Shown here: positions 132-54,063 of the stretch, one piece after another
Numbering within the stretch: the first letter of the stretch is position 1
Layout: each line of letters begins with the position of its first letter
Origin: Candidatus Levyibacteriota bacterium
GTDB taxonomy: Bacteria; Patescibacteriota; Microgenomatia; Levybacterales; UBA12049
Assembly: GCA_029260905.1 (NCBI GenBank)
Contig: JAJDCH010000002.1
Coordinates: 15,546 to 79,545, forward strand
Reading direction: 5' to 3'
Length of the DNA stretch: 64,000 nt
Program-made: the position numbers and the translations under genes
The notes under the pieces: model-generated
What the model saw: only the letters and a program-made list of their open reading frames with translations
Told to the model about the DNA's origin: nothing
The model's database searches: none

Positions 132-512
132 TTATTTTTTGTATGAAAAGAAAAGTTCAAGCATGAGGAAAAGTGCTGCAAGTAAGATAAAGAAAAATGG
201 GTGGTCGATATTATTTAGCTTGAAAATAAGAGATGTTATTCCCAAAAGACTTATTAATCCTGCATGAAGAGGGGATTTGAACAAAAATAGTATTAGATAA
301 AAAATAAAGAGAAAAAGTGAAATAAGAAATAAAAGAACAATAGGTAATTTGAAAAAAAGAAGCGTAAATGTATGGTTTGGTGGGAAAAAGTAGATGAGAG
401 AAGAAAGTATTGATAGAAAGATGATGCTTAAAAATATTGATTTTAGAGATCTTTCGGGAGATTTCATAGAAAGGTTATCTGCAAGTTCCACTTCTGCCAA
501 CAACAGATACAC
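132..512 (-). CDS. Small, very hydrophobic multi-TM protein (hypothetical). The true start is probably the Met near 467, which would remove the overlap with the upstream gene.
   Basis: ORF lies immediately downstream of the pilin-like gene on the same strand. It has 3-4 predicted TM helices, but its L/F/I-rich composition could also be an artefact of AT-rich DNA. Confidence 0.3.
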   Translation of the reverse strand: MYLLLAEVELADNLSMKSPERSLKSIFLSIIFLSILSSLIYFFPPNHTFTLLFFKLPIVLLFLISLFLFIFYLILFLFKSPLHAGLISLLGITSLIFKLNNIDHPFFFILLAALFLMLELFFSYKK

Positions 513-1278
513 ATTTTAGTCCACCTTTGCATTGATTATTTCCTGCAACATCACATGATCCACCTTTTCCAATTGTTCCTTGATTTCCACCAAACTCTCG
601 GAGTTTAAGTACGTCAACACTAAGAAATTGGAGAAGAACAAGTGAGAGTATCAAGAAGATGAGTCCTACAATCGCAGCAATGAGTTGCTCACGTCCTTCT
701 TTTATTTTTTCAGGATTTCCACTAGACATCATTATCTTATATCCAGCACGCATGATCAGAAAAAGAGCTACACCGCCAGAGAGGCTCAGAAGTGCGCCAA
801 AAATTGTACTTACGTAACCACCAGGAGTTGTTGAAATAGTACCAATTGCTGTATTAAATTCTTCACAAACCTCGTATGGCTCTCCTTCTTTTGGGGCAGG
901 ATCAGCGCAAGGTGGGGGTGGAACGTTAATTATTTCAGCTGAGGGTTCACAGGTTTTAAAAAGTCCACTGCTTTGGTTAGTGCATTCAAACCCTTTCTTG
1001 CAAGCCTTTGAATTTCCACCACCTCGTCCAGTATTGTCACATCTTGCACCTTCATCAAGAGTTCCATCTTCTACACATATTGCTGGTTCGGGATCACCTG
1101 GATCAACACAACTGAAGCCTTCTTTGCATGTATCTAGAACGCCACAGGTCATTCCTTCTCCTACCTCTGCTGCAAGAACAGGCTGGGGTAGACTGATAAA
1201 AAACAAACTAACAAAAAATGAAAAAAGAAGGGCAGAAAAAATCTTTCTCACTATTTCAGCTTTGCAGAAAATTGGCAT
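475..1278 (-). CDS. Secreted Cys-rich protein carrying a C-terminal TrbC/VirB2-like two-helix pilin module. It is a paralog of the ORF at 5636..6013.
   Basis: N-terminal signal peptide. Repeated C-K-x-G-F/L-x-C motifs (CKEGFSCV, CKKGFECT, CKGGLKCV). A hydrophobic hairpin with the loop motif AGYKIMMSSGNPEKIKEG aligns with GGYNVMTSKGDPQKANIG of the 125-aa pilin-like protein. Confidence 0.55.
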   Translation of the reverse strand: MPIFCKAEIVRKIFSALLFSFFVSLFFISLPQPVLAAEVGEGMTCGVLDTCKEGFSCVDPGDPEPAICVEDGTLDEGARCDNTGRGGGNSKACKKGFECTNQSSGLFKTCEPSAEIINVPPPPCADPAPKEGEPYEVCEEFNTAIGTISTTPGGYVSTIFGALLSLSGGVALFLIMRAGYKIMMSSGNPEKIKEGREQLIAAIVGLIFLILSLVLLQFLSVDVLKLREFGGNQGTIGKGGSCDVAGNNQCKGGLKCVSVVGRSGTCR

Positions 1279-1300: not shown

Positions 1301-1329
1301 TTGACATCATTTGGCAGTCGTGTTATATT
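1301..1329 (+). promoter_or_regulatory. Sigma70-type promoter TTGACA-N17-TATATT upstream of hrcA
   Basis: TTGACA at 1301-1306 and TATATT at 1324-1329, with an exact 17-nt spacer, about 28 nt upstream of the hrcA ATG at 1357. Confidence 0.55.
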
Positions 1330-1337
1330 ATTGCTAA
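1311..1337 (+). promoter_or_regulatory. Degenerate CIRCE-like inverted repeat (HrcA operator candidate) overlapping the hrcA promoter
   Basis: TTGGCAGTC-N9-TATTGCTAA compared with the CIRCE consensus TTAGCACTC-N9-GAGTGCTAA, matching 7/9 in each half. hrcA is encoded immediately downstream. Confidence 0.35.
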
Positions 1338-5635: not shown

Positions 5636-6013
5636 ATGGCTCGTTTCGTTCTTTCTATATTTTTTTTGTTTGTTTTTATTTTTTCACCAGTTCAGGTATT
5701 TGCAGCAGGGTCAGGAGCGGATTGTGATTATTCAAAGGAGATAAATACTGATTTTGGTTGTCTTCCCAATGATCCGATTGGATTTGTGCAGGAATTTTAT
5801 GGAATAGGACTTAGCTTTATTGCAGCGCTTTCTCTTTTGGCGTTAATAATTGGAGGCTATAATGTGATGACATCCAAGGGAGATCCACAAAAAGCAAATA
5901 TCGGCAAATCATGGATATTTTATGCAATTGGAGGTTTGGTTCTTGCAATTTTTGGATATATATTTATAAGACTTATAATCGTTGATATTTTGAAGGTTCC
6001 AGGATTCTCATAG
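5636..6013 (+). CDS. VirB2/TrbC-like type IV secretion pilin-like protein (signal peptide plus two hydrophobic helices)
   Basis: 125 aa. Signal peptide, then helix-loop-helix with the loop GGYNVMTSKGDPQKANIGKS. It is a paralog of the C-terminal module of ORF 475..1278. Confidence 0.5.
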   Translation: MARFVLSIFFLFVFIFSPVQVFAAGSGADCDYSKEINTDFGCLPNDPIGFVQEFYGIGLSFIAALSLLALIIGGYNVMTSKGDPQKANIGKSWIFYAIGGLVLAIFGYIFIRLIIVDILKVPGFS

Positions 6014-8555: not shown

Positions 8556-11500
8556 ATGTTTGGGAAATTATTTGATCAAAAAAAAGAAGATGATCAAAAT
8601 GCTGCTGCCCCCCAACAGGGACAGGCTACTCAGTATTTTGATCAGCCACCTCCTGGTCAGCAACAGGTAGCACCGAATCAACCGGCTCAGCAAGTAGTTG
8701 CTCAACAGCCAGTAGCACCGACGCCTACTCCTCAAGCTAGTCCTGCAGATAACGCTGCTTCTCCAATTCAGAGTCAGGTTTCACCTCCTGTTGATGGAGC
8801 AACTTCAGCACAGCAGCAAGAACCTATACAGCCAGACACCTCTGCTGCACTTACTCATCTTGACCCTTTAGCAACTCAGGTTTTGACACGAGCGCAGGAA
8901 GAAACAAAAAGAATAAATCAACAGTTTATTGAACCCGAACAGATTTTACTTGCGATAATAAATGATCAGCAGACATATAAGCTTTTGGATGAGTTTAAGA
9001 TTGACGGAGGAGCTCTTTCAAAAGAAATTCAGTCAAAAGAGACAATGGGCGTTTTTAAGTCTCAGCCAACCCTTAGTCCTGTCTCGCAGAAGATTTTTGA
9101 TGCATCTTACAAAGATGCAAAGAATAGAGGCTCCAACTTTGTCACTCCTCAGGATATTTTTATACAGCTTTTATCCAAAGATTATCCTGTTTCAAATTAT
9201 CTAACAAGCAAAGGGCTTATGAAAGAAGCAGTAATTGAAAAGATGGCAAAAAACGCTGATCTTAATTATTCACATAAAACTATTCTTGAAACATATGCAA
9301 CAGACCTAACAGAGGAAGCGCGAACAGGCAAGCTTGATCCTGTTGCAGGACGTGAAAAAGAAGTTGATAGGATTGTTCATATTTTACTTCGAAGAACTAA
9401 AAATAACCCGATTATAATAGGAGAAACTGGAGTTGGAAAAACAGCAATAGTTGAGGGGCTTGCCCAGCAAATCGCAGCTGGTCAGGTTCCAAAAGATTTA
9501 CAAAATAAAAGAGTTTTTCAGCTTGATGTCTCATCTCTTATTGCAGGAGCCTCCCACAGGGGTGAATTTGAAGAAAGACTGCGTGGTGTTGTGAATGAAG
9601 TAATGGGATCCAATAATACAATTATTCTTTTTATTGATGAAATCCACAGTCTCTTAGGAACTGGTGATGGTGAAGGAATGAGTGCAGCAAACATCATAAA
9701 ACCACACCTTGCTCGTGGTCATTTGCAAATGATCGGTGCCACGACAACTATTGAATATAGAAAAAATTTTGCGAAAGACAAGGCGTTTGAGAGACGATTT
9801 CAGCCAGTTACTGCTGAGGAGCCATCTGAGGAAAATGCAGTCGAGATGCTTAAGGTTTTGAGACAAAAATATGAGAAGTTTCATAAGGTAGAAGTTTCTG
9901 ATGATACTTTGGTTGAGTGTGTGAAGCTCTCAAAGAAATATATTGGTGAACGTTATCTACCTGACAAGGCAGTTGATCTTTTGGATGAAGCATGTTCTGA
10001 GGTAAAATTGCAGATAGATGCAGGAAAGAGAAAAGAAGCTCAAGTAAGAAAAGGAGACATAGAAAAAGTTGTCAGTATTTGGACTGGTATTCCTATTACC
10101 AAATTAACAGAAGATGAAAGTCAAAAGCTTCTTAAGCTTGAAGATAGAATTCATAAGAGACTGATTGATCAGGAGCAGGCAGTTGTTGCTGTTGCTGAAG
10201 CGGTAAGGCGTGGAAGAATAGGTCTTGCTGCTGCAAATAGACCAATTGCATCCTTTATATTCCTTGGCCCAACAGGCACGGGTAAGACGGAACTTGCAAA
10301 GACTTTGGCGGAGCTTCTTTTTGGAAGAGATGACGCGATGGCAAGGCTTGACATGTCTGAGTATATGGAGAAGCATGAGGTTGCTAAGCTAATTGGCGCG
10401 CCACCAGGATATGTTGGTTATGAAGAGGGTGGTCAGCTCACAGAAGCAGTTCGCAAGAAGCCTTATTCAATCGTTCTTCTTGACGAGATCGAAAAAGCGC
10501 ATCCTGATGTTTTTAATATACTTTTACAGCTTCTTGAAGATGGAAGACTTACAGATAATAAAGGAAATACAATTTCTTTTAAGAATACAATTGTTATTTG
10601 TACGTCCAATATTGGTAGTAGCTTGATTCAGCAGAAATTAAATGAGCATGATTCAAAGACAGCAAAGACCAAGGAAGAATCAGAAAAACTATTCGAAGAA
10701 TTAACAGCTCTTGCAAAAGAAGAATTGGTCAAATTTTTCAGGCCTGAGCTTTTGAACAGATTTGATGAGACAGTTATTTTCAGGCCTCTTCTGCTTGAGC
10801 ATATGGCCGGCATCACAAGACTTGGTATTAAGAAAACAGCAGGTCTTTTGAAGGAGCAGGGATATAATCTTCAGATTACAGAAAAAGCAATTGCGCAACT
10901 TGCAAAAGATGGTTACGATCCTGTTTATGGGGCAAGACCTCTGAGAAGGCTTATTCAAACAGCGATTGAAAATCCTGTGGCGCTTGAGATTATATCCAAA
11001 AGATTTACACCTGGAGATACAATCTTAATTGATTATGATTCTGAGAAAAATACATTCGTGTTTACAAAAGGTGAGCAGAGCAAGGTATTTAATTCTGAAA
11101 ACATTAAAAAGACTTTGATGGGTGTTTTGCATCCTGAAACAGCCAGCGAAGATGATAAGGAAAAGCTGAAAATCCTGCATGATAAGGTCGAAGAAGCAGC
11201 CAAAAACGGTAATGAGCTAGCAGCAAGGATAATGGCTATGTCTGATGCAACAACAGCTGAAGAGACTCAAAAGATAATGGATGATTTGAAGGTTGCGCGA
11301 GAGAAAGAGGATCCTGTTTCTGCAGATATTTTAGCCTACGTTAATGCTGTTCTTTCAGCGCAAGCAACAGTAGAGCAGGAAGCTGATCCGATGTTTATAT
11401 TCAAGAAAAAGCTTCAGCAAATAGCAAATCCTTTGTATACAGCTGATGAAAAAGATAAAGAAAAATTTAATCATCTAAATGATATGCTTACAAAAGCTAG

Positions 11501-12059
11501 TCAGGAAAACAACGAATGGGCAAAAACTATACTGGCTTTAACAGATCAGACATCTGATACAGATATAGAAAAAATAAAAACAGATCTTGAAAAAGCAAAG
11601 GCAAATGGAGATCAGTTGGCAATCAACGTCCTGCAGGCGATATCTGATTCTGAGACAGCTGAGGTGGCTGGGTCCAGTCAAGAAGAAACTACCAAAGAAC
11701 CAGTTGCTGGCGCAGAAGATAAAAAAGCTGAGGGGGTACCACCTGTTCCAGTATCAGTGGCTGATCAGCCAAAAGAAGTGGTAAAGCCCGCTGTTGATTC
11801 ATCAAAAGGTGCGCCGTTTGGTTTGGCAAACGCGCCAAGTGCGCCTGACACAAGTCATATTACACCAGTTGAGTCCGTTGTTGCAGATCAGCCCGTTGTA
11901 GTTGCAGGAAATCCTGCGCCAGTTGAACCAACACCTCCTGCATCAGGAGGAGCGACCCTATCACAAAGTGCTGGAATGACAGCTTTGAATGAGCACTTAG
12001 AAAAAGAAAACAACATCATTTCTACCTCAGTCGAATCCGATGGTGAGAATATTTCCTAA
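8556..12059 (+). CDS. Clp-family AAA+ ATPase with two nucleotide-binding domains. It is ClpA-like, with no ClpB M-domain, and has an N-terminal Q/P-rich extension and a C-terminal repeat extension.
   Basis: Clp N-domain repeats. D1 Walker A IIIGETGVGKT; D2 Walker A FLGPTGTGKTE. LLDEIEKAHPDVFNILLQLLEDGRLTD and GARPLRRLIQ are present. The D1-D2 linker is short, like ClpA. No IG[FL] ClpP-docking tripeptide was seen. Confidence 0.8.
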   Translation: MFGKLFDQKKEDDQNAAAPQQGQATQYFDQPPPGQQQVAPNQPAQQVVAQQPVAPTPTPQASPADNAASPIQSQVSPPVDGATSAQQQEPIQPDTSAALTHLDPLATQVLTRAQEETKRINQQFIEPEQILLAIINDQQTYKLLDEFKIDGGALSKEIQSKETMGVFKSQPTLSPVSQKIFDASYKDAKNRGSNFVTPQDIFIQLLSKDYPVSNYLTSKGLMKEAVIEKMAKNADLNYSHKTILETYATDLTEEARTGKLDPVAGREKEVDRIVHILLRRTKNNPIIIGETGVGKTAIVEGLAQQIAAGQVPKDLQNKRVFQLDVSSLIAGASHRGEFEERLRGVVNEVMGSNNTIILFIDEIHSLLGTGDGEGMSAANIIKPHLARGHLQMIGATTTIEYRKNFAKDKAFERRFQPVTAEEPSEENAVEMLKVLRQKYEKFHKVEVSDDTLVECVKLSKKYIGERYLPDKAVDLLDEACSEVKLQIDAGKRKEAQVRKGDIEKVVSIWTGIPITKLTEDESQKLLKLEDRIHKRLIDQEQAVVAVAEAVRRGRIGLAAANRPIASFIFLGPTGTGKTELAKTLAELLFGRDDAMARLDMSEYMEKHEVAKLIGAPPGYVGYEEGGQLTEAVRKKPYSIVLLDEIEKAHPDVFNILLQLLEDGRLTDNKGNTISFKNTIVICTSNIGSSLIQQKLNEHDSKTAKTKEESEKLFEELTALAKEELVKFFRPELLNRFDETVIFRPLLLEHMAGITRLGIKKTAGLLKEQGYNLQITEKAIAQLAKDGYDPVYGARPLRRLIQTAIENPVALEIISKRFTPGDTILIDYDSEKNTFVFTKGEQSKVFNSENIKKTLMGVLHPETASEDDKEKLKILHDKVEEAAKNGNELAARIMAMSDATTAEETQKIMDDLKVAREKEDPVSADILAYVNAVLSAQATVEQEADPMFIFKKKLQQIANPLYTADEKDKEKFNHLNDMLTKASQENNEWAKTILALTDQTSDTDIEKIKTDLEKAKANGDQLAINVLQAISDSETAEVAGSSQEETTKEPVAGAEDKKAEGVPPVPVSVADQPKEVVKPAVDSSKGAPFGLANAPSAPDTSHITPVESVVADQPVVVAGNPAPVEPTPPASGGATLSQSAGMTALNEHLEKENNIISTSVESDGENIS

Positions 12060-12114
12060 ATTTGGGATTTGGTTATTTCATTTGTAATTTCTGCGTATTC
12101 TCCATATACTAAAT

Positions 12115-12450
12115 GTGAGCATGAATTCTTATCTGTCTATTCCACTTATTATTTTGAAGTTTTGGTATTTTGAGGCGCCAAGGGGAATTCTTGGTTATTT
12201 TGGATCGCTTAATAAAGCTTTTTTTGATTTCTTTTCACTACCTCTTTTTCTTAAGACCTATTTTAAGCCCCTGAAAAATGAATACAGACAAGGCTTGGTT
12301 GGTTTCTCAAGAGCAATGGGAATTATCATAAAGACAGGCTTTATTGTGATTGATCTGATAATCTTAGCCACTCTTTTAGTATTTGAGATAGGAGTAATTG
12401 TCGGATTTTTGGCATTTCCGATTCTTACTTTTTGGATGTTGTTTGTTTGA
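12115..12450 (+). CDS. Small membrane protein (hypothetical)
   Basis: 111-aa ORF with hydrophobic helices, lying between the two Clp-like genes. Confidence 0.4.
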   Translation: MSMNSYLSIPLIILKFWYFEAPRGILGYFGSLNKAFFDFFSLPLFLKTYFKPLKNEYRQGLVGFSRAMGIIIKTGFIVIDLIILATLLVFEIGVIVGFLAFPILTFWMLFV

Positions 12451-12459
12451 AAAGAAAAT

Positions 12460-14868
12460 ATGTTTTTTTACGCACGAATTTATCATTTTTACAGGCGAGC
12501 TTTATTAAGAGCCATACGCCTTTTTGTTTTTGCTGTTTTGCTTCTTATTATTTGGCCAAGTGTAGAGGCAGGAGGCTTGCCGAAAATTCCACTTTTCTTG
12601 TTTAATCTTTTTGTTATTTGGGAGATATTTTTTCATTTTAAGATTGGGCGTGTGATGCCTAGTTTAACAATTGAAAAGAATCAAAAAAAAGATCCTTATT
12701 TATCTTTTACACTCCAGGCAATTCTTCCATTTGTAGAGGAAGTAAAGACAGGAAATATTATAAGAAAAATTGTTAAGTACCCGCAAATTAAAGCCATAAT
12801 GCAAAAAGCAGACATAGAAGACAAAGACTTGAATTTTCCAGATGTGCCAGTTGATCTTTTGGCGCAATCCGCTTTTGAAACAGCACGTACGTTCAGGGCA
12901 AAATATGTGACATCTATTGATCTTTTTGCAGCATACATTTTTCTTATAGAGAAAGACACCGAGCTTCTTTTTGCCAAACAATTAAAGATAGATGATCTAA
13001 ATAATATTGTACGTTGGGCAAAGATAGAGTATCCAGATGAAGAAGAGCCCAAGAAAATAAGGACAGGGTCGTTGGGTGAGGGAATAGGAGAAGTATTAAC
13101 AACTGGATGGACTTATGAAACCAAAAAATATACAGTATCATTTTCATCTATTGCTCTTGGCAATAAACCTTTGATACTTGGGAGAGAGGCTGAATTTCGA
13201 CAATTAATTGAGACACTTATAAAAATAGAAAATAATAATGTGCTGCTGGTTGGAAATATAGGTGCGGGAAAGGAGAATTTGGTGCGGGCATTTTCTTATT
13301 ATTCTTTTACGGGTGAGCTTGGAGGGCTTCTCAATTACAAAAAAGTACTTCAACTTCTTACTGGTGCATTGACAGCTGGCGCATCACAAAGAGGAGATCT
13401 TGAAGTACGACTCCAAGAAATAATTGCTGAGATATCACATGCTGAGAATGTGCTTATTTATATACCTGATATTGAAAATATACTTGGTGGCGCGTCCTAC
13501 AACCTTGATTTATCAGGGGCACTGCTTCCTTATCTCAAGACAGGCAATCTGCCGGTTGTGGCAACTATGACAACTGGTGCTTACAAAACCTACATGGAGA
13601 AAAATCCGATTAAGGAGGCTTTTACTGTTATAAGTCTTTCAGATCCAGGCCCTGATGTTGCAACACAAATGGTACTTAGTGAGGCAAAAAAGATTGAGAA
13701 AAAATACAATGCCATCATTACATATGGTGCTGTTAAATCTTCTGTTGAGTTAGCCGGGAGATTTCTTCAGGATCAGGTACTTCCGGGTAGTGCTGTATCA
13801 CTTCTTGAGACAGTTGCAAATAAAGTTGCGCTTGATAAAAACGTTGTTTATTTTGAGCATACCAAGAAAAAAGCAGTTCTCAAGGATCATGTGGTTAGTG
13901 AGGTGGAGACTGAGGCGCATGTGGCAATCGGCACACCAAGCGATCAGGAGATAGAGCTACTTTTACATCTTGAGGAGAGGCTTCATGCGCGGGTTATCCA
14001 TCAGGATGAGGCCATCACTGCCATATCTGAGGCGATGAGAAGAGTCAGATCGGGAATGAGTACTAGCGAGAGGCCTGTCTCATTTTTGTTTCTTGGCCCA
14101 ACTGGTGTGGGCAAGACTGAGACAGCCAAGGCTCTTGCTGATTTTTATTTTGGTGGTGTCAAAAATATGATCAGGCTTGATATGAGTGAGTACTCAGATG
14201 ATGCGGGAGTAAGGCGTCTTCTTGGAGCGCTTCCAGGTGAGGGACAGGAAAGAGGAGAGCTGACTGATAAGATTCATGATAATCCAGCAAGCCTTGTTCT
14301 TCTTGATGAGTTTGAAAAAGCAAATCCCAAGATTCATAATTTATTTCTCCAGGTTTTGGATGATGGACGATTAACTGATAATAAAGGTGTGACTGTAAGT
14401 TTCCGTAACGCCATAATCATCGCCACATCCAATGCAGGATCTGAATTTATTCGTGAAGAAGTGGGAAAAGGTGTGGCAGTTGATAAAAGTTTTCAAAGAA
14501 ATCTGCTCGAGCATCTTCAGACTAATAGGCTTTTTAAGCCTGAACTTCTTAATCGATTTGATGATGTAGTTACCTTTAAACCACTTGCCAATGAAGACGT
14601 AATTCAAGTTGTAAAATTAATGCTTGGCAACTTGATTAAAACAATGGCTGAACAAGATATAGTCCTCGCCTTTGATGATGCTGTTATTGAGAAGATTAGC
14701 AAAGAAGGTTTTGACGCGCAGTTTGGGGCTAGGCCACTGAAGCGTTATATTCAGGATAATCTTGAGGACATAATTGCCCAGAAAAAACTTACAAAAGAAC
14801 TGGATAGAGGCAAGAGAGCTTCTTTCTCAATTGATGGAACAGGCGCGCTGACTGTAACCATTTCGTAA
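12460..14868 (+). CDS. Membrane-anchored Clp-like AAA+ protein. D1 is degenerate; D2 is intact but lacks the pore-loop tyrosine.
   Basis: N-terminal TM helices. D1 Walker A is GNIGAGKE and D1 Walker B is IPDIEN (degenerate). D2 has FLGPTGVGKTE, LVLLDEFEKA and GARPLKR intact. GALPGEGQ replaces the GYVG pore loop. Confidence 0.7.
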   Translation: MFFYARIYHFYRRALLRAIRLFVFAVLLLIIWPSVEAGGLPKIPLFLFNLFVIWEIFFHFKIGRVMPSLTIEKNQKKDPYLSFTLQAILPFVEEVKTGNIIRKIVKYPQIKAIMQKADIEDKDLNFPDVPVDLLAQSAFETARTFRAKYVTSIDLFAAYIFLIEKDTELLFAKQLKIDDLNNIVRWAKIEYPDEEEPKKIRTGSLGEGIGEVLTTGWTYETKKYTVSFSSIALGNKPLILGREAEFRQLIETLIKIENNNVLLVGNIGAGKENLVRAFSYYSFTGELGGLLNYKKVLQLLTGALTAGASQRGDLEVRLQEIIAEISHAENVLIYIPDIENILGGASYNLDLSGALLPYLKTGNLPVVATMTTGAYKTYMEKNPIKEAFTVISLSDPGPDVATQMVLSEAKKIEKKYNAIITYGAVKSSVELAGRFLQDQVLPGSAVSLLETVANKVALDKNVVYFEHTKKKAVLKDHVVSEVETEAHVAIGTPSDQEIELLLHLEERLHARVIHQDEAITAISEAMRRVRSGMSTSERPVSFLFLGPTGVGKTETAKALADFYFGGVKNMIRLDMSEYSDDAGVRRLLGALPGEGQERGELTDKIHDNPASLVLLDEFEKANPKIHNLFLQVLDDGRLTDNKGVTVSFRNAIIIATSNAGSEFIREEVGKGVAVDKSFQRNLLEHLQTNRLFKPELLNRFDDVVTFKPLANEDVIQVVKLMLGNLIKTMAEQDIVLAFDDAVIEKISKEGFDAQFGARPLKRYIQDNLEDIIAQKKLTKELDRGKRASFSIDGTGALTVTIS

Positions 14869-26446: not shown

Positions 26447-28912
26447 ATGACTGAAAGACGAGGAGCACCACGTACTCCGGAACAAGTATTACCCAAAGAA
26501 AATCTTTTGGGTTCTAATCATGCGCTTCAGGCAAGGCTTCTAAATCCGCTTAATCTTGAGGCGGATATGAACGGTACGGATGTGCTCGTAATAGCTGGTG
26601 ATGTCAAAGATCAGGGACTCGGGTTTGCTCTTGGAGAAGAGGGAGCAAGGGTTTATGAAGATGTTTCACTACAACAAAGAGGAAATGATACCCTCAAATT
26701 TAACCAATGGAGAGATAATTTCAACATTAGAATTGCTCAAATCAAAAAAAGAGAGCCTGAAAAGGCTGAATTTTTAGAGCAGATTGGTGTGACAGATGCT
26801 GATAGCTTTTATGATGAGTATCTTTTTGATAGAGAAAATGGAAAGCTCAAATCTGATTTGGTTGGATTTGTTTCAAAAGTAGCTGAGGCTGATGCAGGTT
26901 CTGTTGGAGCAAATGAAGATTTGATAAAAGAGCTTGGAAAGGCTTTTGGTGAGGGGTCAAATGAAGTGATAGTTAATCTGGTACAGGCTGTTAAAAATAT
27001 CCAAATGGGTGCAACAACTTTTGCTCAGTCAGCTGAGATTGATTTGGAAGTTGCAAAAACACATGATCTTATTCAAAGAATTGTTTCAGATAGAAATGAA
27101 TGGAATGCAGGCGGTCAAGATGCTGCAGAGCAGGATCTTCAGGCGTATTTGGCGACTTTGGAAGAAGATGAAGTAGACCAAGGCGGTGATGAGGGTGATG
27201 ATGATTCAGGTCCTGATGATGCTGGGAAAAGACACCAGGCTACGAAAGACAATTCTCAGTCTGATAAGGAAGAAGATGGTGGAGAAGGTGATGAAAGTGG
27301 AGATGGTAAAAATTTACCTGACAAGTTGGTTTGGAGAAGTGGGGGGATAAATGTTCCACCAGATCCGGATAGTAATGGCGAGCCTCCTGATGGTCCTAGT
27401 GGCGGCGTAGAGCCTGATTCGTCTCCTTCAGGAAGCGGTGGAGGATCAGGAGCGGTTGCTGAAGGAGATGGTAGCGGATCTGGAGAAGACAAGATTCCCG
27501 CAGGCACGTTTGGGCCTGGGGATGATGAGTTGGAGTTTGAGTATGATGAGCCAGAACGAGTCAGTCCAGATGTTTCAGATTGGCAGACCATGATTATGCG
27601 AGTCAAGTCAGGATCACTTCCTGATGAGACAAAAGCTAAATTGATAGCGCAAATTAGAGGAAAAATAGCTGAAGAAAGAGCAAATGCCGGTGGAAAACTG
27701 ACAAGCGGCGGAGAGGAGGATGGAGGAAATCCTGAGCCTGTTCAGATAGATAGACCTGCAAGTCCTGCAGTTGAAAGTTTTGTGAATGGAGATGGTTTGG
27801 ACCTAGATGCTGTTTTAGGGGAGATGCGCAGTTCTGCTGCCGAAACTGCAGGTCCAGTAACAGAACCTGATCGCGGGAGCGAAAGTAGTGAGACTGGGAA
27901 AGAGGTTCTTTCTTATGATCCTTTGATACTTAGGGATATCAGAGACAGATTAAGATATTTTAGTGAGGTTTTTCCTCACAAAGAATTTCTTCTTGGCAGG
28001 GATATAGAGTTGGAAGCAGACGTGCTGGATGAGGTGTTAAAGCTTGTAGATCAGGCAGGCAAAATTATTGAATCAAGAAAAGGAGAGGTCGCTGGTTTTG
28101 GGGAGTTTTTTGAGGCATACACAGAACAGGTGGAGCTGGATAAGGATCTGGAATCAGGATTTTGGATCTCAGATGATGGAAATACGAGATATGCATCTGC
28201 AGAGATATACGAACTTAATCAGATGGTACGTGCCAAGGCATATGTTGAGGCAATTGCAAAAGGCTATAAGTCAATACTTGAAGGTCAAGAAAATGGGTCG
28301 TTTGATAGGGAGTTGACAGAAATTTTTTCTAGTTATCTTCCAGCACTTGATGATTTCATGAGGAGTCAGATTGATGGCACTCCTGAGTATGAATCTCAAC
28401 TCGATCTGTCTTATCAAGGGTTTGTTGAAAGGGTTAAAGATCAGATTGAGGGTGTGGACAATCCAGGAGGAAATGTAAAAATTTTGGTAGAGATGCCTGC
28501 GCTTTCTGAATATATAAAAGGCAGATTGCGAAATGGTGAAAGTGTTCAGGATCTTGAGATTATTAGTTTGGGAAAAGACGGTCAAAAGCCATATATAAGA
28601 TTCGTGGTTGTGACAGCTGATGGTAGTGAGGTAAATTACAATATAGTTAACAATAAAGAGAATACAGGGATGGAAATTTATTTTGATCATGAGCTGAATG
28701 GCTCGCTAGACACAGATAATCCCGCAATAACAGAGATTGATGATGATTTAAATGATTATCCAGACGAAAATTATCGAGATTTCGGTGAGGGTTTGGTGCA
28801 TGATCTTGATTTGGCGATTGAAAATCCCAAAATGAGACCAGTTGGAATGATAATAGATACTTATGGTGAGTTGATAATTAAATTTGCAGATAGCGAATTT
28901 ATAGCGATATAA
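26447..28912 (+). CDS. Large acidic hypothetical protein (821 aa) with a G/D/E/S-rich, disordered-looking central region
   Basis: Long clean ORF with no TM helices or recognisable catalytic motifs. The region is more GC-rich than the surrounding sequence. Confidence 0.6.
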   Translation: MTERRGAPRTPEQVLPKENLLGSNHALQARLLNPLNLEADMNGTDVLVIAGDVKDQGLGFALGEEGARVYEDVSLQQRGNDTLKFNQWRDNFNIRIAQIKKREPEKAEFLEQIGVTDADSFYDEYLFDRENGKLKSDLVGFVSKVAEADAGSVGANEDLIKELGKAFGEGSNEVIVNLVQAVKNIQMGATTFAQSAEIDLEVAKTHDLIQRIVSDRNEWNAGGQDAAEQDLQAYLATLEEDEVDQGGDEGDDDSGPDDAGKRHQATKDNSQSDKEEDGGEGDESGDGKNLPDKLVWRSGGINVPPDPDSNGEPPDGPSGGVEPDSSPSGSGGGSGAVAEGDGSGSGEDKIPAGTFGPGDDELEFEYDEPERVSPDVSDWQTMIMRVKSGSLPDETKAKLIAQIRGKIAEERANAGGKLTSGGEEDGGNPEPVQIDRPASPAVESFVNGDGLDLDAVLGEMRSSAAETAGPVTEPDRGSESSETGKEVLSYDPLILRDIRDRLRYFSEVFPHKEFLLGRDIELEADVLDEVLKLVDQAGKIIESRKGEVAGFGEFFEAYTEQVELDKDLESGFWISDDGNTRYASAEIYELNQMVRAKAYVEAIAKGYKSILEGQENGSFDRELTEIFSSYLPALDDFMRSQIDGTPEYESQLDLSYQGFVERVKDQIEGVDNPGGNVKILVEMPALSEYIKGRLRNGESVQDLEIISLGKDGQKPYIRFVVVTADGSEVNYNIVNNKENTGMEIYFDHELNGSLDTDNPAITEIDDDLNDYPDENYRDFGEGLVHDLDLAIENPKMRPVGMIIDTYGELIIKFADSEFIAI

Positions 28913-35500: not shown

Positions 35501-36229
35501 TTATATCTTCTCAGCTTTTGATTTTATTATCAACCTTTTCCAGGTTGTACCAGGCGGTGTACATGTAACAATTGTTAGATAAGAGCCGTCATATTGTTGA
35601 GTTAGATACGAGGTGTCTTCGGCATCAGTAACTGAGATATCAAATATTTTGTAATTATAAATTTTTCCATCTGATGAGACCTGAATATCATCGCCTGGTT
35701 TTACGCTATGAATATTGGCAAAGATCGTTTTATAGTTTTTTGGATCAAAAAGCTGTGGAAGGGTTGAGTGACCAAAAATGACAGATGTGCCACGATTTGG
35801 GGGTATAGCAGTTCCTGGAAAATTGACAAGATTGGAGGAAAGGTCAAGATTAACGGTTGAAGCTATTACATCTTTTATGCCGATTGATTCAATAGACAGA
35901 TAAAAAAACGATACATTACTTTCCTCCTCTTTTTTATGTGACGGTGGTAACCAGTTAGGATTGCCATTAAAATTAACACTTGAGATAGATTCTGCTGTGG
36001 TTTCAAAAAAGCTTTTTATAGAGTTTTTTGAAAGAATAAATTTTTGTGGGATAGGTGATGTATAAGTGCTGCTAGCAAAAGCAGGTTTTACGTAAAGTTC
36101 CCATGAAAGAATTGGAAACATCACATAAAGTCCGAAAAATAGACCAAGAAGTGAAATACCAAGTCCGCCAAGCCTTATTGTTTTTTTGATTTTTTTGGTG
36201 TCTGCTTTTTTGTAAACTTTTTTAATCAT
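35501..36229 (-). CDS. Sortase (transpeptidase)
   Basis: N-terminal TM anchor, His in IFGHSTL, the TLxTC motif LTIVTCTP with the catalytic Cys, and a conserved Arg (WKRL). Confidence 0.8.
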   Translation of the reverse strand: MIKKVYKKADTKKIKKTIRLGGLGISLLGLFFGLYVMFPILSWELYVKPAFASSTYTSPIPQKFILSKNSIKSFFETTAESISSVNFNGNPNWLPPSHKKEEESNVSFFYLSIESIGIKDVIASTVNLDLSSNLVNFPGTAIPPNRGTSVIFGHSTLPQLFDPKNYKTIFANIHSVKPGDDIQVSSDGKIYNYKIFDISVTDAEDTSYLTQQYDGSYLTIVTCTPPGTTWKRLIIKSKAEKI

Positions 36230-36231
36230 AT

Positions 36232-38550
36232 TTATTCCTGAGCGAAAAGTGAGACATTAATGTTGTTTGGAAGTGTTGGAAAAAGAGAGGTTAAAAAAAG
36301 AAGATTAGGAGTGTATTTTATTTCTGCTTTTTCGACTTGTGGAAGAGATGTCAGCATATTTTTTATTTCTTTTGCTGATCTACCTTTTATTTTTTTGACT
36401 ATCTCAGTGGTATCAATTTTGGGAAGAAGGCCTGCGTTAATATCAAGAGCTGCTGCTACTTCACCATCTTCTCCTGCTTCAGGTTCTGTTATTCTTGTTT
36501 CAAATTTATTATCAGCAAAGCTTATATCATCAGAGTATTCTTTTTTGAGAATTGCTTTTGAAAAATCAGTTAGTTCTGATTGGTTGTAAGCTATTTCTTC
36601 AAATACCACAGTTGCTGTTAATTTTACCTTTCCTGTTTCGTCATCTTCTTCTTTGTCAAACTTTTCTTTTTCCAGTGAGGAATTTATTATGACAGGAAGG
36701 ATTTTCTCATCGCCGCCTATTTTTTTGCTCAGCTCTTCAACAGCTTTTTCAGATAGGCTTTTGGGAAGATCAGTTCTTAATTTTTTGATATCATCTGCGC
36801 TAACAACGGTTACAGTTTTTTTGGTACCGTTTGAGAACGCAGATCCGTTTCTGGCTGCAAGATCTGAATTATTCCCAATTGTAAATCTAGTACCTGATGG
36901 AAGATTGCTATCGGTTCCTATTTCCTCTGCTACCACATCAACATCTTTGGTGCCGGGTTTGGTTCCTGAAAAGACATCACCTGTTGCTGCATCAATTTCG
37001 ATATCATTCTGAGTTACAAAAACAAGATCATTACTTGATGTGAGTCTCGTTCCGCTTGATATAGATATATCATCATCAGAATTGTTGTAAACAGTAACTT
37101 TTCCTTTTGCTTTTTCACCAACATCTTTTTTACCTGTTGTGTTTACTTCAAGTTCCCCATCAATTGCAACAGTTACACTTTTTCCAGCAATTATATTTTC
37201 AGAAAAGTTGGTACCTGATGCAGTAGAAAATATAACCTTTTCAGATGTTTCTACAATTTCTGGTTTAACTGATAAAACAACCTCAGCTTTTGTATTGAAG
37301 TAATAAAATAATGTAAATCCAACAAAAACAATAAGAATTCCAATTATTGCTAAGATTGGCATTAGCAAGCCTTTTTTTTCACGTAGGTTTGTAATTTTTT
37401 CAAAAACACCTGATGGTTTTATTGAACCCAAAAATGCGAGTGAATTTTCAACCATATTTTTAAATCCTATCTTTGATTCATCGTTGGTTGGTTCTTCTTC
37501 ATCATCATCATATTCAAAAGAACTCTTATCAGATTCCCTTTTGGGACCATGAAGATTCATAAGGGGCATGGAGTCATCATCTTTTTTTGCAGGAATGATA
37601 TCATCTTCTTTTTTTTCATGTTGTGGGATTACGCCAACTCCATCTTTTGCTACGTCTTTTCCTAGGACAAAGCCAAAATTACCTCCACCTTCTGAGATGT
37701 CATTTGTTTTTAATTCACCATCTGGATTTTTTAATTCATCTTCAGGTTCAATTGATGTTGAAATGTCAGGTATTTTTTCGGAAAGATTTGAAACAGTAAG
37801 CCCCATCTGCTCACTTGCGCCAAAAGTGACAGCTTTTATGTCGAAATCATATGCAAGGGCATTGACTTGAGGAACATGAAGAAAGGGAAGGGATTTACTC
37901 CATTGGTGCTTAGTAAATTCATGGCCGAGGTTTTTGTGTTCCTTGTTACTGTAGAGTATGACTCTTGCTGGGAGTACAGCAGTTGTGAATTCTTTAAGAA
38001 GCGTATCGGTGGTTGTGGCGGCGTTTTCTTCAAGTCCTCCTCGTGCTGTTTCAACTATTTTTCCTCCTCTATAAAGGGTTAATTTGACTTCTCTTTTTCC
38101 GACTTCTGCAAGAACTGCAGATAGAGGGGATCCTTCATCAGCTTGAAGCATGTGGGCTACAGCCTCGCTTATCACAAGAAAACCAACTGGTGTAAGTGAG
38201 AGAGCATCAGAGGCTTTTTTTAGCTTGTGTAGATATTCCTTTTTAATTTTTTTGGATTCATTGTCAATCCAATTATCTTTTACACCAAAAACTGTTTTGT
38301 GGGTTTGGATATCAGGTGGGAGAATCTCTTCAGCTCTACTTATGGTTTTATCGATAGTTTGTACAAGCTCATCTATTGTCAGGTTCTCAAGAGGCGTTAG
38401 GAGTTTTTCTTGATGGCGTGAAACGATTTCCGATTCGTTAAGATTTTTTTTGAGAATTACTGATTCAGCTTTATCGTCTGTGAGAAGAAGAACGAGGTAA
38501 TAATCGTCACTTCCTTTTTTTGATTTTAAAAATGGAATAGGCAGCTTCAT
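36232..38550 (-). CDS. Bitopic membrane protein (772 aa) with an N-terminal cytoplasmic domain, one TM helix and an extracellular S/T/G/D-rich C-terminal region. It is translationally coupled to the sortase gene.
   Basis: Single central hydrophobic segment (LLMPILAIIGILIVFVGFTLFYYF). Its stop codon overlaps the sortase start. Confidence 0.6.
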   Translation of the reverse strand: MKLPIPFLKSKKGSDDYYLVLLLTDDKAESVILKKNLNESEIVSRHQEKLLTPLENLTIDELVQTIDKTISRAEEILPPDIQTHKTVFGVKDNWIDNESKKIKKEYLHKLKKASDALSLTPVGFLVISEAVAHMLQADEGSPLSAVLAEVGKREVKLTLYRGGKIVETARGGLEENAATTTDTLLKEFTTAVLPARVILYSNKEHKNLGHEFTKHQWSKSLPFLHVPQVNALAYDFDIKAVTFGASEQMGLTVSNLSEKIPDISTSIEPEDELKNPDGELKTNDISEGGGNFGFVLGKDVAKDGVGVIPQHEKKEDDIIPAKKDDDSMPLMNLHGPKRESDKSSFEYDDDEEEPTNDESKIGFKNMVENSLAFLGSIKPSGVFEKITNLREKKGLLMPILAIIGILIVFVGFTLFYYFNTKAEVVLSVKPEIVETSEKVIFSTASGTNFSENIIAGKSVTVAIDGELEVNTTGKKDVGEKAKGKVTVYNNSDDDISISSGTRLTSSNDLVFVTQNDIEIDAATGDVFSGTKPGTKDVDVVAEEIGTDSNLPSGTRFTIGNNSDLAARNGSAFSNGTKKTVTVVSADDIKKLRTDLPKSLSEKAVEELSKKIGGDEKILPVIINSSLEKEKFDKEEDDETGKVKLTATVVFEEIAYNQSELTDFSKAILKKEYSDDISFADNKFETRITEPEAGEDGEVAAALDINAGLLPKIDTTEIVKKIKGRSAKEIKNMLTSLPQVEKAEIKYTPNLLFLTSLFPTLPNNINVSLFAQE

Positions 38551-52899: not shown

Positions 52900-54063
52900 T
52901 TAGAGGAAGAGGAAGATGAATGCGCCTCCGAGCATAAGAACCAATGATACAATTCCTACACCCAGTGCAACTTCTGCTGATCCTGTTGGCTCAAGCGTTG
53001 GTATAGGTGTAGGAGCAGTTACTCCGCCACCAGTTGAGCCACCACCGCCACCAGTTGAGCCACTATCCCCATTTACAGTAACAGTCCCTTTACATAGATC
53101 AGATGGAGCGCTTACTCCTCCTCGTTCATCATATATAACAGCGCTTACGTTGAATGTTCCAGCATTATTGTAGGTGTAGGATGCTGGTGCATTTACAGAT
53201 GCTGTTCCTATTCCGCCGCCAGATGAGACATCAGTTGTCCCACCGTCACCAAAGTTGAATGTTACTTTATTAATAGTTCCATCTGTGTCACTACCTGCAA
53301 CAGTAAATGTAACTGAGAATGGTAAATCTCCAACTGGATCCCTGTCAACACTTAAGCTGTCACAAACAGGAAGCTCGTTTGGAATTTCAGGTCCAGGAGT
53401 TGAATCAGGATCTGGCGTAGCAGTTGGAGATGGAATTTTGGTTGGAGCTGGAGTGCCAGTCGGAATTGCTGTGTCCTGGACTCCGATTGCAATGTATGCT
53501 GGATTTGATGATGATAGAACGTTCTCTGCAAATTCACTATTACCATCAATTGATGAAACAGTTGTAGTAATACCATATGAAACCTGCGTTGGTGTTGTTG
53601 CGTCGGTGTTGCTGAGTGCAGTAAATGTAACCTTTCCAGCACTTGTTGGTATTTGTTGGATTGCCTTTGTTGGGTCTGATCCAACTGAGAGGGCGACTGA
53701 AATTTTGCCAGGTTCATATACAGGACCTTCTGTAATTGTCGGGAATGCGCTTGTGTTTACTACAAACGCACCGTTTTCTGCTGATAATTTTTCGGGATCA
53801 TAACTAATTTCAAGTTTTACAAAAGAAACAAGGTTTTCTCCGGGATCGACAACAACATCAAGAGTTACCTGTTTATCAATATCTGTTTTTATTGGTGCGC
53901 TTGCTGAAGAATCGGGTTTGTAGAGAAGGTTTGTGGATGGGTTAGCTCTTGATCTAGTATCTGTGGTTGTGCCCACAAGATAGATGGTTAGCGGTATTCC
54001 AATTAGAAGTACGGCAAGAAGTCCAAACAAGAGAATTTTTTTACCGCTTATTTTTTGTTTCAT
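52900..54063 (-). CDS. Surface protein with an N-terminal anchor/signal, a T/P-rich linker, a PKD-like domain, and a C-terminal LEPTG motif followed by a hydrophobic tail
   Basis: PFSVTFTVAGSDTDGTINKVTFNFGDGG (PKD-like). The C-terminus is ...TLEPTGSAEVALGVGIVSLVLMLGGAFIFLFL. Confidence 0.6.
   Translation of the reverse strand: MKQKISGKKILLFGLLAVLLIGIPLTIYLVGTTTDTRSRANPSTNLLYKPDSSASAPIKTDIDKQVTLDVVVDPGENLVSFVKLEISYDPEKLSAENGAFVVNTSAFPTITEGPVYEPGKISVALSVGSDPTKAIQQIPTSAGKVTFTALSNTDATTPTQVSYGITTTVSSIDGNSEFAENVLSSSNPAYIAIGVQDTAIPTGTPAPTKIPSPTATPDPDSTPGPEIPNELPVCDSLSVDRDPVGDLPFSVTFTVAGSDTDGTINKVTFNFGDGGTTDVSSGGGIGTASVNAPASYTYNNAGTFNVSAVIYDERGGVSAPSDLCKGTVTVNGDSGSTGGGGGSTGGGVTAPTPIPTLEPTGSAEVALGVGIVSLVLMLGGAFIFLFL

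Follow-up and report, generated by a model that had tools for sequence, protein, structure and literature searches.

A VirB2-like type IV secretion system pilin paralog with cysteine-rich outer modules beside the dnaK operon of a Levyibacteriota genome

What kind of protein is the cysteine-rich product of the gene that lies next to the heat-shock operon in this genome, and what might its outer parts be for? The stretch analyzed here (the window) comprises 64,000 nucleotides (nt) of Candidatus Levyibacteriota bacterium (GenBank assembly GCA_029260905.1, contig JAJDCH010000002.1, positions 15,546 to 79,545), apparently a piece of a Levybacteria-like (Microgenomates) chromosome of the ultrasmall Patescibacteria. 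Close to its start, a gene for a protein of 267 amino acids (aa), the big or decorated pilin of this text, is transcribed divergently from hrcA. An earlier, sequence-only reading of this DNA had taken it for a pilin module decorated with disulfide-rich, adhesin-like domains and for a paralog of a 125-aa protein encoded on the other side of the dnaK operon. Our analysis favors, with moderate confidence, its interpretation as a VirB2-like pilin paralog of a type IV secretion system (T4SS), which would act as a minor surface-displaying subunit or as a membrane-resident pilin-like anchor and which, along with the small pilin, would present lineage-specific binding modules. The observation that gives this locus its character comes from the alignment of syntenic orthologs, in which a conserved hairpin core is joined to radically variable outer parts.

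The family assignment of the hairpin is provided by profile searches. Residues 157-219 match Pfam PF18895 (T4SS_pilin) over profile positions 10-71 of 71 at 40.9 bits (cut-off 26.6, E=2.2e-10), and the architecture of this family, i.e., a Sec-type signal peptide followed by two hydrophobic helices with a short basic loop, is found in the 267-aa protein. The "pilin module" of the sequence-only reading is thereby borne out as that of a T4SS pilin, and by these profile matches the hairpin is a T4SS (VirB2-like) module and not a type IV pilus pilin. The NCBIfam model NF045849 (Mbov_0395 pilin-like conjugal transfer protein) aligns with residues 145-219 (model 2-76 of 80) at 38.6 bits, below its cut-off of 40 (E=6.3e-10), and the decorated pilin is best regarded as a close relative, not a member, of that family. 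The likeness extends over nearly the whole 80-position model, whereas the model covers the hairpin region only, without the Cys-rich modules; moreover, Mbov_0395 genes reside on integrative and conjugative elements (ICEs) of Mycoplasma, in contrast to the chromosomal housekeeping context of the gene studied here. Such a near-full match fits the reported MPF-FATA ancestry of Patescibacteria T4SS (PMC12102498). It also links Patescibacteria pilins with pilin-like proteins of Tenericutes ICEs and is relevant to a question raised in the literature, namely whether the pilin came along with a T4SS of the MPF-FATA type.

The relation to the canonical VirB2/TrbC/TraA pilins (PF04956) is more distant. 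These share with the decorated pilin the succession of signal peptide, hydrophobic helix, short basic loop and second hydrophobic helix. They differ from it in size (about 70 aa when mature, consisting of the hairpin alone, vs. about 230 aa with an N-terminal ectodomain of about 120 aa and a 40-aa C-terminal module) and in their Gram-negative hosts, as opposed to a monoderm; nor is there evidence of its cyclisation, acetylation or assembly into a lipid-bound filament. The Pfam scan revealed no PF04956 match in the 267-aa protein and sub-threshold matches in the small paralog (E=0.052) and in the orthologs L001 (E=0.0024) and L010 (E=0.0086; cut-off 27.9 bits). Comparison by hhalign of the family alignment with Agrobacterium VirB2 matched both helices and the loop in register, but weakly, with a probability of 22% (pairwise E=9.5e-4). 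A search of PDB with the family profile found no sequence relative, and Foldseek with the AlphaFold2 model found nothing in PDB at E<=0.001, listing generic helical hairpins and a weak match to Dickkopf (E=0.28, probability 0.25).

A pilin-like protein of a Patescibacterium could also be suspected of being a PilA-like type IV pilus pilin or pseudopilin, given that these bacteria encode abundant type IV pilus systems (bioRxiv 10.1101/335083). We rejected this candidate, whose probability we consider practically negligible: its signal peptide is of the classical type, a G|F-T-L-I-E prepilin motif is absent, its two hydrophobic helices (residues 155-227) stand behind a large N-terminal domain instead of forming one N-terminal helix, and its Pfam matches are to T4SS_pilin only, with no N_methyl match.

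In itself the decorated pilin is nothing unusual: it belongs to a large catalogued family and, within that family, to a large decorated subfamily. A word-indexed search returned 41 homologs of 183-465 aa (one of them named Candidatus Roizmanbacteria), 37 of which carry a precomputed PF18895 annotation; these homologs, together with the conserved synteny described below, also led us to reject a spurious open reading frame (ORF). An exhaustive search yielded 8,291 cluster representatives (50% identity) at E<=1e-3 and 2,435 at E<=1e-10. Among species-representative genomes, the pilin loci belong mostly to Candidatus Levyibacteriota or to unclassified Patescibacteria metagenome-assembled genomes, and the best relative among GTDB representative genomes is 44% identical.

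Genes in the big-pilin position next to hrcA were extracted from related loci and scanned against Pfam, and 14 proteins, most of them confirmed as syntenic, were compared. The 90-aa core, from a conserved F-x-T-A-x-G motif located between the linker with its Cys pair and helix 1, just ahead of the latter, to the end of helix 2, is 49-81% identical, with a median of 59%. The N-terminal heads show a median identity of 26%, vs. 14% for shuffled heads by an equally lenient measure. In an alignment of 27 sequences (alignment A1), G179, Y180 and G187 of the core are invariant and P189 and R196 are 90%-conserved, while in the linker P123 is invariant and C124 and C138 are kept in at least 90%. This strong constraint on loop and helices speaks for a role of the hairpin beyond anchoring.

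The outer parts attached to this core are of several kinds. The closest ortholog (L001) has the same succession of four, four and two Cys in its head and four in its tail as the 267-aa pilin. In L002 (9698..10936), a head of three 6-Cys "CGNPG...CC" repeats is combined with a tail of two PG_binding_1 domains (E ~1e-15), and the same type of tail (two domains, E ~1e-15) in L011 (1625..3223) accompanies a beta-rich head of about 270 aa that is mostly not Cys-rich; in both proteins the PG_binding_1 domains follow helix 2 and replace the 4-Cys tail. Heads of about 340 aa in L005 and L015 are Cys-poor and immunoglobulin (Ig)-like and come with a 4-Cys tail. Tails are absent from L004, L010, L027 and L019, with heads of "CTC..G..NGF.C"-type repeats, and from L006, with a different repeat ("KGSC..QC..YC"). 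Overall, the heads of orthologs measure about 100 to 350 aa and their tails 0 to 140 aa, and in about half of the syntenic loci the tblastn alignment starts only at residue ~104-138. Thus, with a core at a median of 59% identity, heads near the identity of shuffled ones and outer domains of unrelated types, whole outer parts are exchanged at this locus around a hairpin that stays strongly constrained. We found neither the decorated architecture nor this cassette-like turnover beside the dnaK operon described in the searchable literature, and the same holds for the synteny of the locus, counted in at least 9 Levybacteria-like genomes with parts of it in 4 more. Two or more decorated pilins also occur in tandem, in L006 (10001..11735), L015 (5515..6969) and L065/L066 (10001..11309); the window has one big and one small pilin.

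The layout of the 267-aa protein agrees with the description given in the sequence-only reading: the ORF, the signal peptide, the three quoted motifs (CKEGFSC at residues 51-57, CKKGFEC at 93-99 and CKGGLKC at 250-256) and the additional cysteines are all present, and the Cys-rich segment noted beyond the second helix proved to be a 4-Cys module (Table 1). Hydropathy analysis delineates three hydrophobic segments (residues 9-39, 155-178 and 195-227). The first belongs to the signal peptide, which, by rules of thumb on hydropathy and charge, has a basic n-region (K6, R11, K12) and a hydrophobic core at ~13-31; the likely signal peptidase I site is PVLA|AE, where homologs have AYA/VYA/SFA-type sites. 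An alternative start candidate is GTG 1249..1251 (MRKIF...), read from the sequence and coinciding in alignment A1 with the start position of homologs (MKKF/VKRF). The 15 cysteines (residues 5, 45, 51, 57, 68, 80, 93, 99, 110, 124, 138, 242, 250, 256 and 266) comprise Cys5 inside the signal peptide, which would be absent if translation started at that GTG, and 14 others arranged as three 4-Cys frames and one pair (C124/C138). The 4-Cys modules have a common frame, C-x5-12-C-x5-C-x9-10-C. The ectodomain carries a net charge of -13, and the short, basic loop of the hairpin (5 K/R and 3 D/E) is predicted to be cytoplasmic. In the AlphaFold2 model (mean predicted local distance difference test, pLDDT, 73.7), helices at 152-184 and 189-229 have a pLDDT of ~87 and the C-terminal module 77-90; the N-terminal modules reach 50-68, with beta-hairpins at 55-58/66-70 in module 1 (low to moderate confidence) and at 97-101/108-112 in module 2.

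Table 1. Positions within the window of the decorated pilin, its parts and the neighboring genes discussed in the text
Feature	Position	Strand	Basis or remark
Decorated T4SS pilin paralog (assigned by profile), 267 aa, whole gene	475..1278	-	ORF call; stop codon 475..477
Signal peptide, residues 1-36	1171..1278	-	Hydropathy and charge analysis
N-terminal 4-Cys module 1, residues 41-70 (C45, C51, C57, C68; CKEGFSC)	1069..1158	-	Cys framework
N-terminal 4-Cys module 2, residues 77-112 (C80, C93, C99, C110; CKKGFEC)	943..1050	-	Cys framework; layout also in ortholog L001
Pro-rich linker and Cys pair, residues 119-138 (PPPPC124...C138)	865..924	-	Alignment A1
Pilin hairpin, residues 152-229: transmembrane helix (TM) 1 ~155-178, loop 179-194 YKIMMSSGNPEKIKEGREQ, TM2 195-227	592..825	-	PF18895, NCBIfam, BLASTP, hydropathy, AlphaFold2
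C-terminal 4-Cys module, residues 238-267 (C242, C250, C256, C266; CKGGLKC...GRSGTCR)	478..567	-	Tail profile; predicted extracytoplasmic
Minimal pilin paralog, 125 aa (signal peptide, Cys pair, hairpin; no extra modules)	5636..6013	+	BLASTP, sub-threshold PF18895
Cys-free, very hydrophobic polytopic membrane protein, 111 aa	132..467	-	7 nt downstream of the decorated pilin; 13 related loci
Polytopic membrane protein, 831 aa	6017..8512	+	3 nt after the small pilin; TrbL E=0.0057, 16.9 bits, cut-off 25.9

The cysteine content sets this protein apart within the window: Cys makes up 5.6% of its residues vs. 0.28% of the other 43 proteins (54 Cys in 19,386 residues), an approximately 20-fold enrichment, and the second Cys-richest protein is the 125-aa small pilin. 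Such rarity across the window suggests that Cys content could serve to flag exported disulfide-bonded proteins in these genomes. At least three C-x-x-G-hydrophobic-x-C motifs arose in 1 of 100,000 shuffles of the non-membrane part, a value that is indicative only as the motif was defined post hoc. In 137 retrieved relatives with a recognizable hairpin, the decoration at both ends, as claimed in the sequence-only reading, is recurrent: a head of at least 60 aa is present in 133 of them and at least four head Cys likewise in 133 (median 7.3 Cys per 100 residues), the polyproline and Cys-pair pattern in 125, and a tail with at least four Cys in 64. The heads of these relatives contain 70 C-x-x-G-hydrophobic-x-C motifs where shuffles predict 4.5, and Gly occupies position 3 of C-x5-C segments in 34% of cases in heads and 58% in tails over a background of 9.9%. 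Recurrence of the Cys spacing in homologs is thus seen in the L001 layout, in the motif counts and in the tail profile described next.

The tail of the decorated pilin scored 38 bits (independent E-value 3e-12) against a profile of the C-terminal modules of its homologs, from which the query had been left out. Homologs contain 0, 1, 2 or 3 copies of this tail module, which therefore represents a genuine mobile unit, and within 1.24 Mb of related loci it was detected in pilin ORFs only. The same profile gave 1.0 and -1.4 bits on the N-terminal modules, and a second profile version gave module 1 7.3 bits. With values of ~1 to 7 bits, the notion of the three Cys repeats as one homologous family was not borne out, and we have dropped the claim of three homologous repeats. 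What the N- and C-terminal modules have in common is one Cys framework and the CxxG(F/L)xC signature, by which homology of the tail to the N-terminal modules is no more than suggested. None of the 4-Cys modules matches a Pfam domain: PF14625 (Lustrin_cystein) reaches 13.8 bits (E=0.074) with a cut-off of 27, and 18.3 bits for the L001 tail.

The orthologs also provide an indication of membrane topology. The PG_binding_1 tails of L002 and L011 come after helix 2, and that end of the protein thus lies outside the cytoplasm, which in turn implies an N-out/C-out topology with the Cys modules where disulfides can form. We infer this topology, with disulfide-bonded outer modules, from the PG-binding tails, from even Cys counts (112 of the 137 relatives) and from the 20-fold Cys enrichment. 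The term "disulfide-rich" is used here as a prediction based on the even Cys count of the mature protein, the predicted N-out/C-out arrangement, the PG_binding_1 tails in two orthologs and the enrichment of Patescibacteria, or candidate phyla radiation (CPR), in an MdbA-like oxidoreductase with VKOR (Meheust et al., bioRxiv 10.1101/335083).

In the course of events that we propose, the decorated pilin would be exported by the Sec route and cleaved by signal peptidase I after approximately residue 36. Helix 1 would then cross the membrane from outside to inside, the basic G-N-P-E loop would remain in the cytoplasm and helix 2 would lead back outward. The N-terminal part of about 120 aa, with two 4-Cys modules and the Cys pair, and the 40-aa C-terminal module would both face outward and be oxidized to disulfides. 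In the F-pilus and the T-pilus, VirB2/TraA-type pili of solved structure, both ends of the subunit are located at the outer face of the filament, and the loop points toward the lumen. By extension from these structures, the modules would be exposed either at the cell surface or along a filament consisting mainly of the small pilin, and the decorated and small pilins together would present binding modules toward a host cell or cell wall. The incorporation of the decorated pilin into a pilus is our reading of these likenesses, and an adhesin or host-binding role appears plausible, as a conjecture, for an epibiotic lineage.

The partner assumed in this scheme, the 125-aa small pilin, is by sequence a true paralog of the big one. 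Its match to PF18895 (24.5 bits) stays just under the cut-off of 26.6, with DUF6112 and TrbC/VirB2 also sub-threshold. BLASTP aligned residues 123-229 of the 267-aa pilin with residues 18-124 of the 125-aa pilin at 30% identity over 107 aa without gaps (E=1e-15); the hairpin loops that the sequence-only reading had put side by side fall inside this alignment, and their correspondence holds. A phmmer search with the hairpin against all 641 six-frame ORFs of the window retrieved just the two pilins, the paralog at 1.5e-13 and nothing else at E<=10.

With two pilins at hand, one may ask whether the decorated form itself could be the major pilus subunit, every copy bearing Cys modules and the filament being fully coated. 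An N-out/C-out protein would have both ends on the filament exterior by analogy with VirB2/TraA structures, and decorated forms dominate among close relatives (133 of 137 with heads of at least 60 aa). We nevertheless consider this quite improbable: the 125-aa paralog is more conserved between genomes (58-73%) and makes a more natural major subunit, and heads of ~100 to 350 aa with tails of 0 to 140 aa are hard to fit into one conserved lattice.

The chromosomal setting of both genes was analyzed by tblastn of the window proteins against 79 related loci. In the window, the big pilin gene is divergent from hrcA (likely start, ATG 1357), and the order continues with hrcA-grpE-dnaK-dnaJ, the small pilin, the 831-aa polytopic protein and two ClpB-like ATPases. 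That pilin genes stand on both sides of the dnaK operon was correctly noted before, and the arrangement recurs in related genomes: it is complete in L001, L002, L004, L006, L010, L020, L027 and L028 and partial in L005, L009, L011, L015 and L017. Across syntenic loci, identity to the window copy is 81-91% for DnaK, 79-84% for HrcA, 58-73% for the small pilin (found in the same position) and 45-54% for the 831-aa protein. The small pilin and the polytopic protein are embedded in a chaperone cluster (hrcA-grpE-dnaK-dnaJ-[pilin-polytopic protein]-clpB-clpB'), in which the two ClpB-like AAA+ paralogs (1167 and 802 aa) occupy 8556..14868 (+) with a conserved 111-aa membrane ORF between them (12115..12450).

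The short region between the divergent genes contains a near-consensus hrcA promoter (TTGACA-17-TATATT with an upstream TG, 1301..1329, +). It is overlapped by a palindrome resembling the controlling inverted repeat of chaperone expression (CIRCE), TTGGCAGTC-N9-TATTGCTAA (within 1301..1337, +), with 4 mismatches to the consensus; no CIRCE with <=3 mismatches occurs anywhere in the 64-kb window. Given the position of this element in a region common to hrcA and the pilin, it may be speculated that HrcA could affect both, and decorated pilins might be co-regulated with the HrcA heat-shock regulon via the common divergent promoter region.

Directly 3' of the big pilin, in 13 related loci as in the window, lies the gene for the 111-aa membrane protein (132..467), with 36-48% identity. 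Its likelier start is ATG 467, since GTG 512 would overlap the pilin gene, and it has no Pfam match. This protein may work together with the decorated pilin as its partner. In L001, the closest genome, metG and tatD, and not T4SS genes, follow next downstream. Small, knottin-like Cys-rich modules and a small membrane protein conserved immediately downstream would also be expected of a secreted Cys-rich peptide precursor (toxin or signal), for which the hairpin would be the leader or carrier and the 111-aa protein would provide immunity or export. This reading appears very improbable in view of the absence of protease or processing motifs, the presence of Ig-like or PG-binding domains in place of the modules in orthologs, and the fact that the conserved part is the hairpin rather than the presumed payload.

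For the VirB2-like reading, the 831-aa protein adjacent to the small pilin is of particular relevance as it is the sole T4SS candidate nearby. Its weak TrbL match is repeated in none of 6 orthologs, and a profile of this protein finds nothing in PDB; the orthologs measure 833-1558 aa, with the growth mostly in a hydrophilic, seemingly repetitive C-terminal region. We tentatively view it as a very divergent VirB6/TrbL-like component on the strength of this match, and it is a candidate for the highly divergent VirB6 that PMC12102498 notes as "missing" from Microgenomatia.

Several considerations weigh against a pilin function of the decorated protein. The only nearby T4SS candidate lacks ortholog support for its TrbL match, neither VirB4, VirD4 nor VirB3 is encoded within the 64-kb window, and the genes adjoining the big pilin are housekeeping genes or of unassigned function. 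The likeness to VirB2 itself is weak in the hhalign comparison, in the Pfam scan no module of the 267-aa pilin matches a known adhesin, and neither Foldseek nor the PDB sequence search gave a significant hit. Subunits of VirB2-type filaments are tightly packed and may leave no room for a head of 120 to 350 aa on each of them, and the PG-binding tails of orthologs would suit a stationary protein tethered to the wall more than they would suit an extruded pilus. Finally, no Patescibacteria T4SS pilus is reported in PMC12857230 or PMC11665869.

Because of the large heads, the PG-binding tails and the lack of T4SS genes close by, an alternative stays alive in which the hairpin is a two-pass membrane anchor that does not polymerize and is independent of any T4SS, and the modules act at the cell's own wall or surface, e.g., in tethering or envelope organization. 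A gene located away from any recognizable T4SS ATPase, orthologs with PG_binding_1 tails and large heads that may block filament packing would all be accommodated in this way. We regard it as unlikely, albeit deserving serious weight, since hairpin and cytoplasmic loop are conserved far beyond the needs of an anchor (median core identity 59%; G179, Y180 and G187 invariant; P189 and R196 at 90% or more), the family is shared with virB4-clustered Patescibacteria pilins (PMC12102498), and a minimal pilin paralog is encoded in the same conserved locus.

The VirB2-like pilin reading also has to be seen against published work on Patescibacteria T4SS. Quinonero-Coronel et al. (2025) have searched Patescibacteria with PF18895 and related profiles and obtained VirB2-like pilins from 1,948 assemblies also containing VirB4, with the pilin near virB4 in 1,135 of the 1,948; divergent pilin genes form arrays of 2-11 members, above all in Microgenomatia and Saccharimonadia (PMC12102498). 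Their survey of 3,035 genomes detected no adhesins for Patescibacteria T4SS (PMC12102498). In Southlakia epibionticum, the T4SS genes have been shown to be essential, and so has their series of pilins (Wang et al., 2023; PMC10633639). According to reviews, the function of Patescibacteria T4SS is unknown and a monoderm pilus would be unprecedented (PMC12857230, PMC11665869); the system is essential in the sole genetically tractable Patescibacterium, and its role is called completely unknown (PMC11665869). Terminal Cys-rich or other extra pilin domains are not mentioned in PMC12102498, PMC10633639, PMC12857230 or PMC11665869.

The decorated pilin resembles the published PF18895 pilins of Patescibacteria (e.g., the Southlakia epibionticum ML1 array and the TM7x "Sec secreted array") in Pfam family, in having a signal peptide and a two-helix hairpin, in the occurrence of several divergent paralogs per genome and in its Microgenomates/Patescibacteria distribution. 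The published pilins are described as small and arrayed near virB4, whereas the 267-aa pilin has a Cys-rich N-terminal ectodomain of ~120 aa and a C-terminal 4-Cys module, is not arrayed, has no virB4 nearby, and is divergent from hrcA in a locus where ectodomains are swapped. A functional analogy, and no more, can be drawn to the multi-paralog VirB2 of Bartonella and Anaplasma and to surface adhesins of Gram-positive systems such as PrgB, variable surface parts of T4SS that are thought to widen or alter target recognition (PMC12102498). In Bartonella/Anaplasma VirB2 the variation is inside the pilin sequence and PrgB is a separate large adhesin without sequence relationship to the 267-aa pilin, in contrast to the family described here, with whole ectodomains fused to a conserved hairpin.

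Other parts of the window encode further proteins of interest. An 821-aa, very acidic protein (26447..28912, +) has no Pfam match and contains a Gly/Asp/Glu/Ser-rich low-complexity stretch; its gene sits where GC content (0.436) and GC skew are highest in the window. A sortase gene and, immediately upstream of it, the gene for a 772-aa protein whose sole Pfam match is Baseplate_J (29.5 bits vs. a cut-off of 21.1) are located at 35501..38550 (-). A surface protein with a PKD domain, anchored in the membrane by its C-terminus, is encoded at 52900..54063. No tRNA genes were found in the window.

A bolder extension of the pilin reading would treat the PF18895 hairpin as a universal membrane or pilus "socket" to which Levybacteria and other Microgenomates attach interchangeable host-binding cassettes (Cys-knot-like, Ig-like or PG-binding) at a fixed chromosomal hot spot beside the dnaK operon, so that decorated pilins would be the "missing" T4SS adhesins and a main determinant of host range; we consider this doubtful as a whole, with a modest chance of being right. 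The value of the finding lies in the architecture and in its pattern across genomes, not in the single gene, and it poses a structural puzzle, since large terminal domains would somehow have to be accommodated in a lattice of the VirB2 type. If it is true that swappable disulfide-bonded outer domains make the contact, the decorated pilins would provide concrete host-recognition candidates for uncultured Microgenomates, and the big-pilin locus would be a marker for predicting host range from metagenomes.

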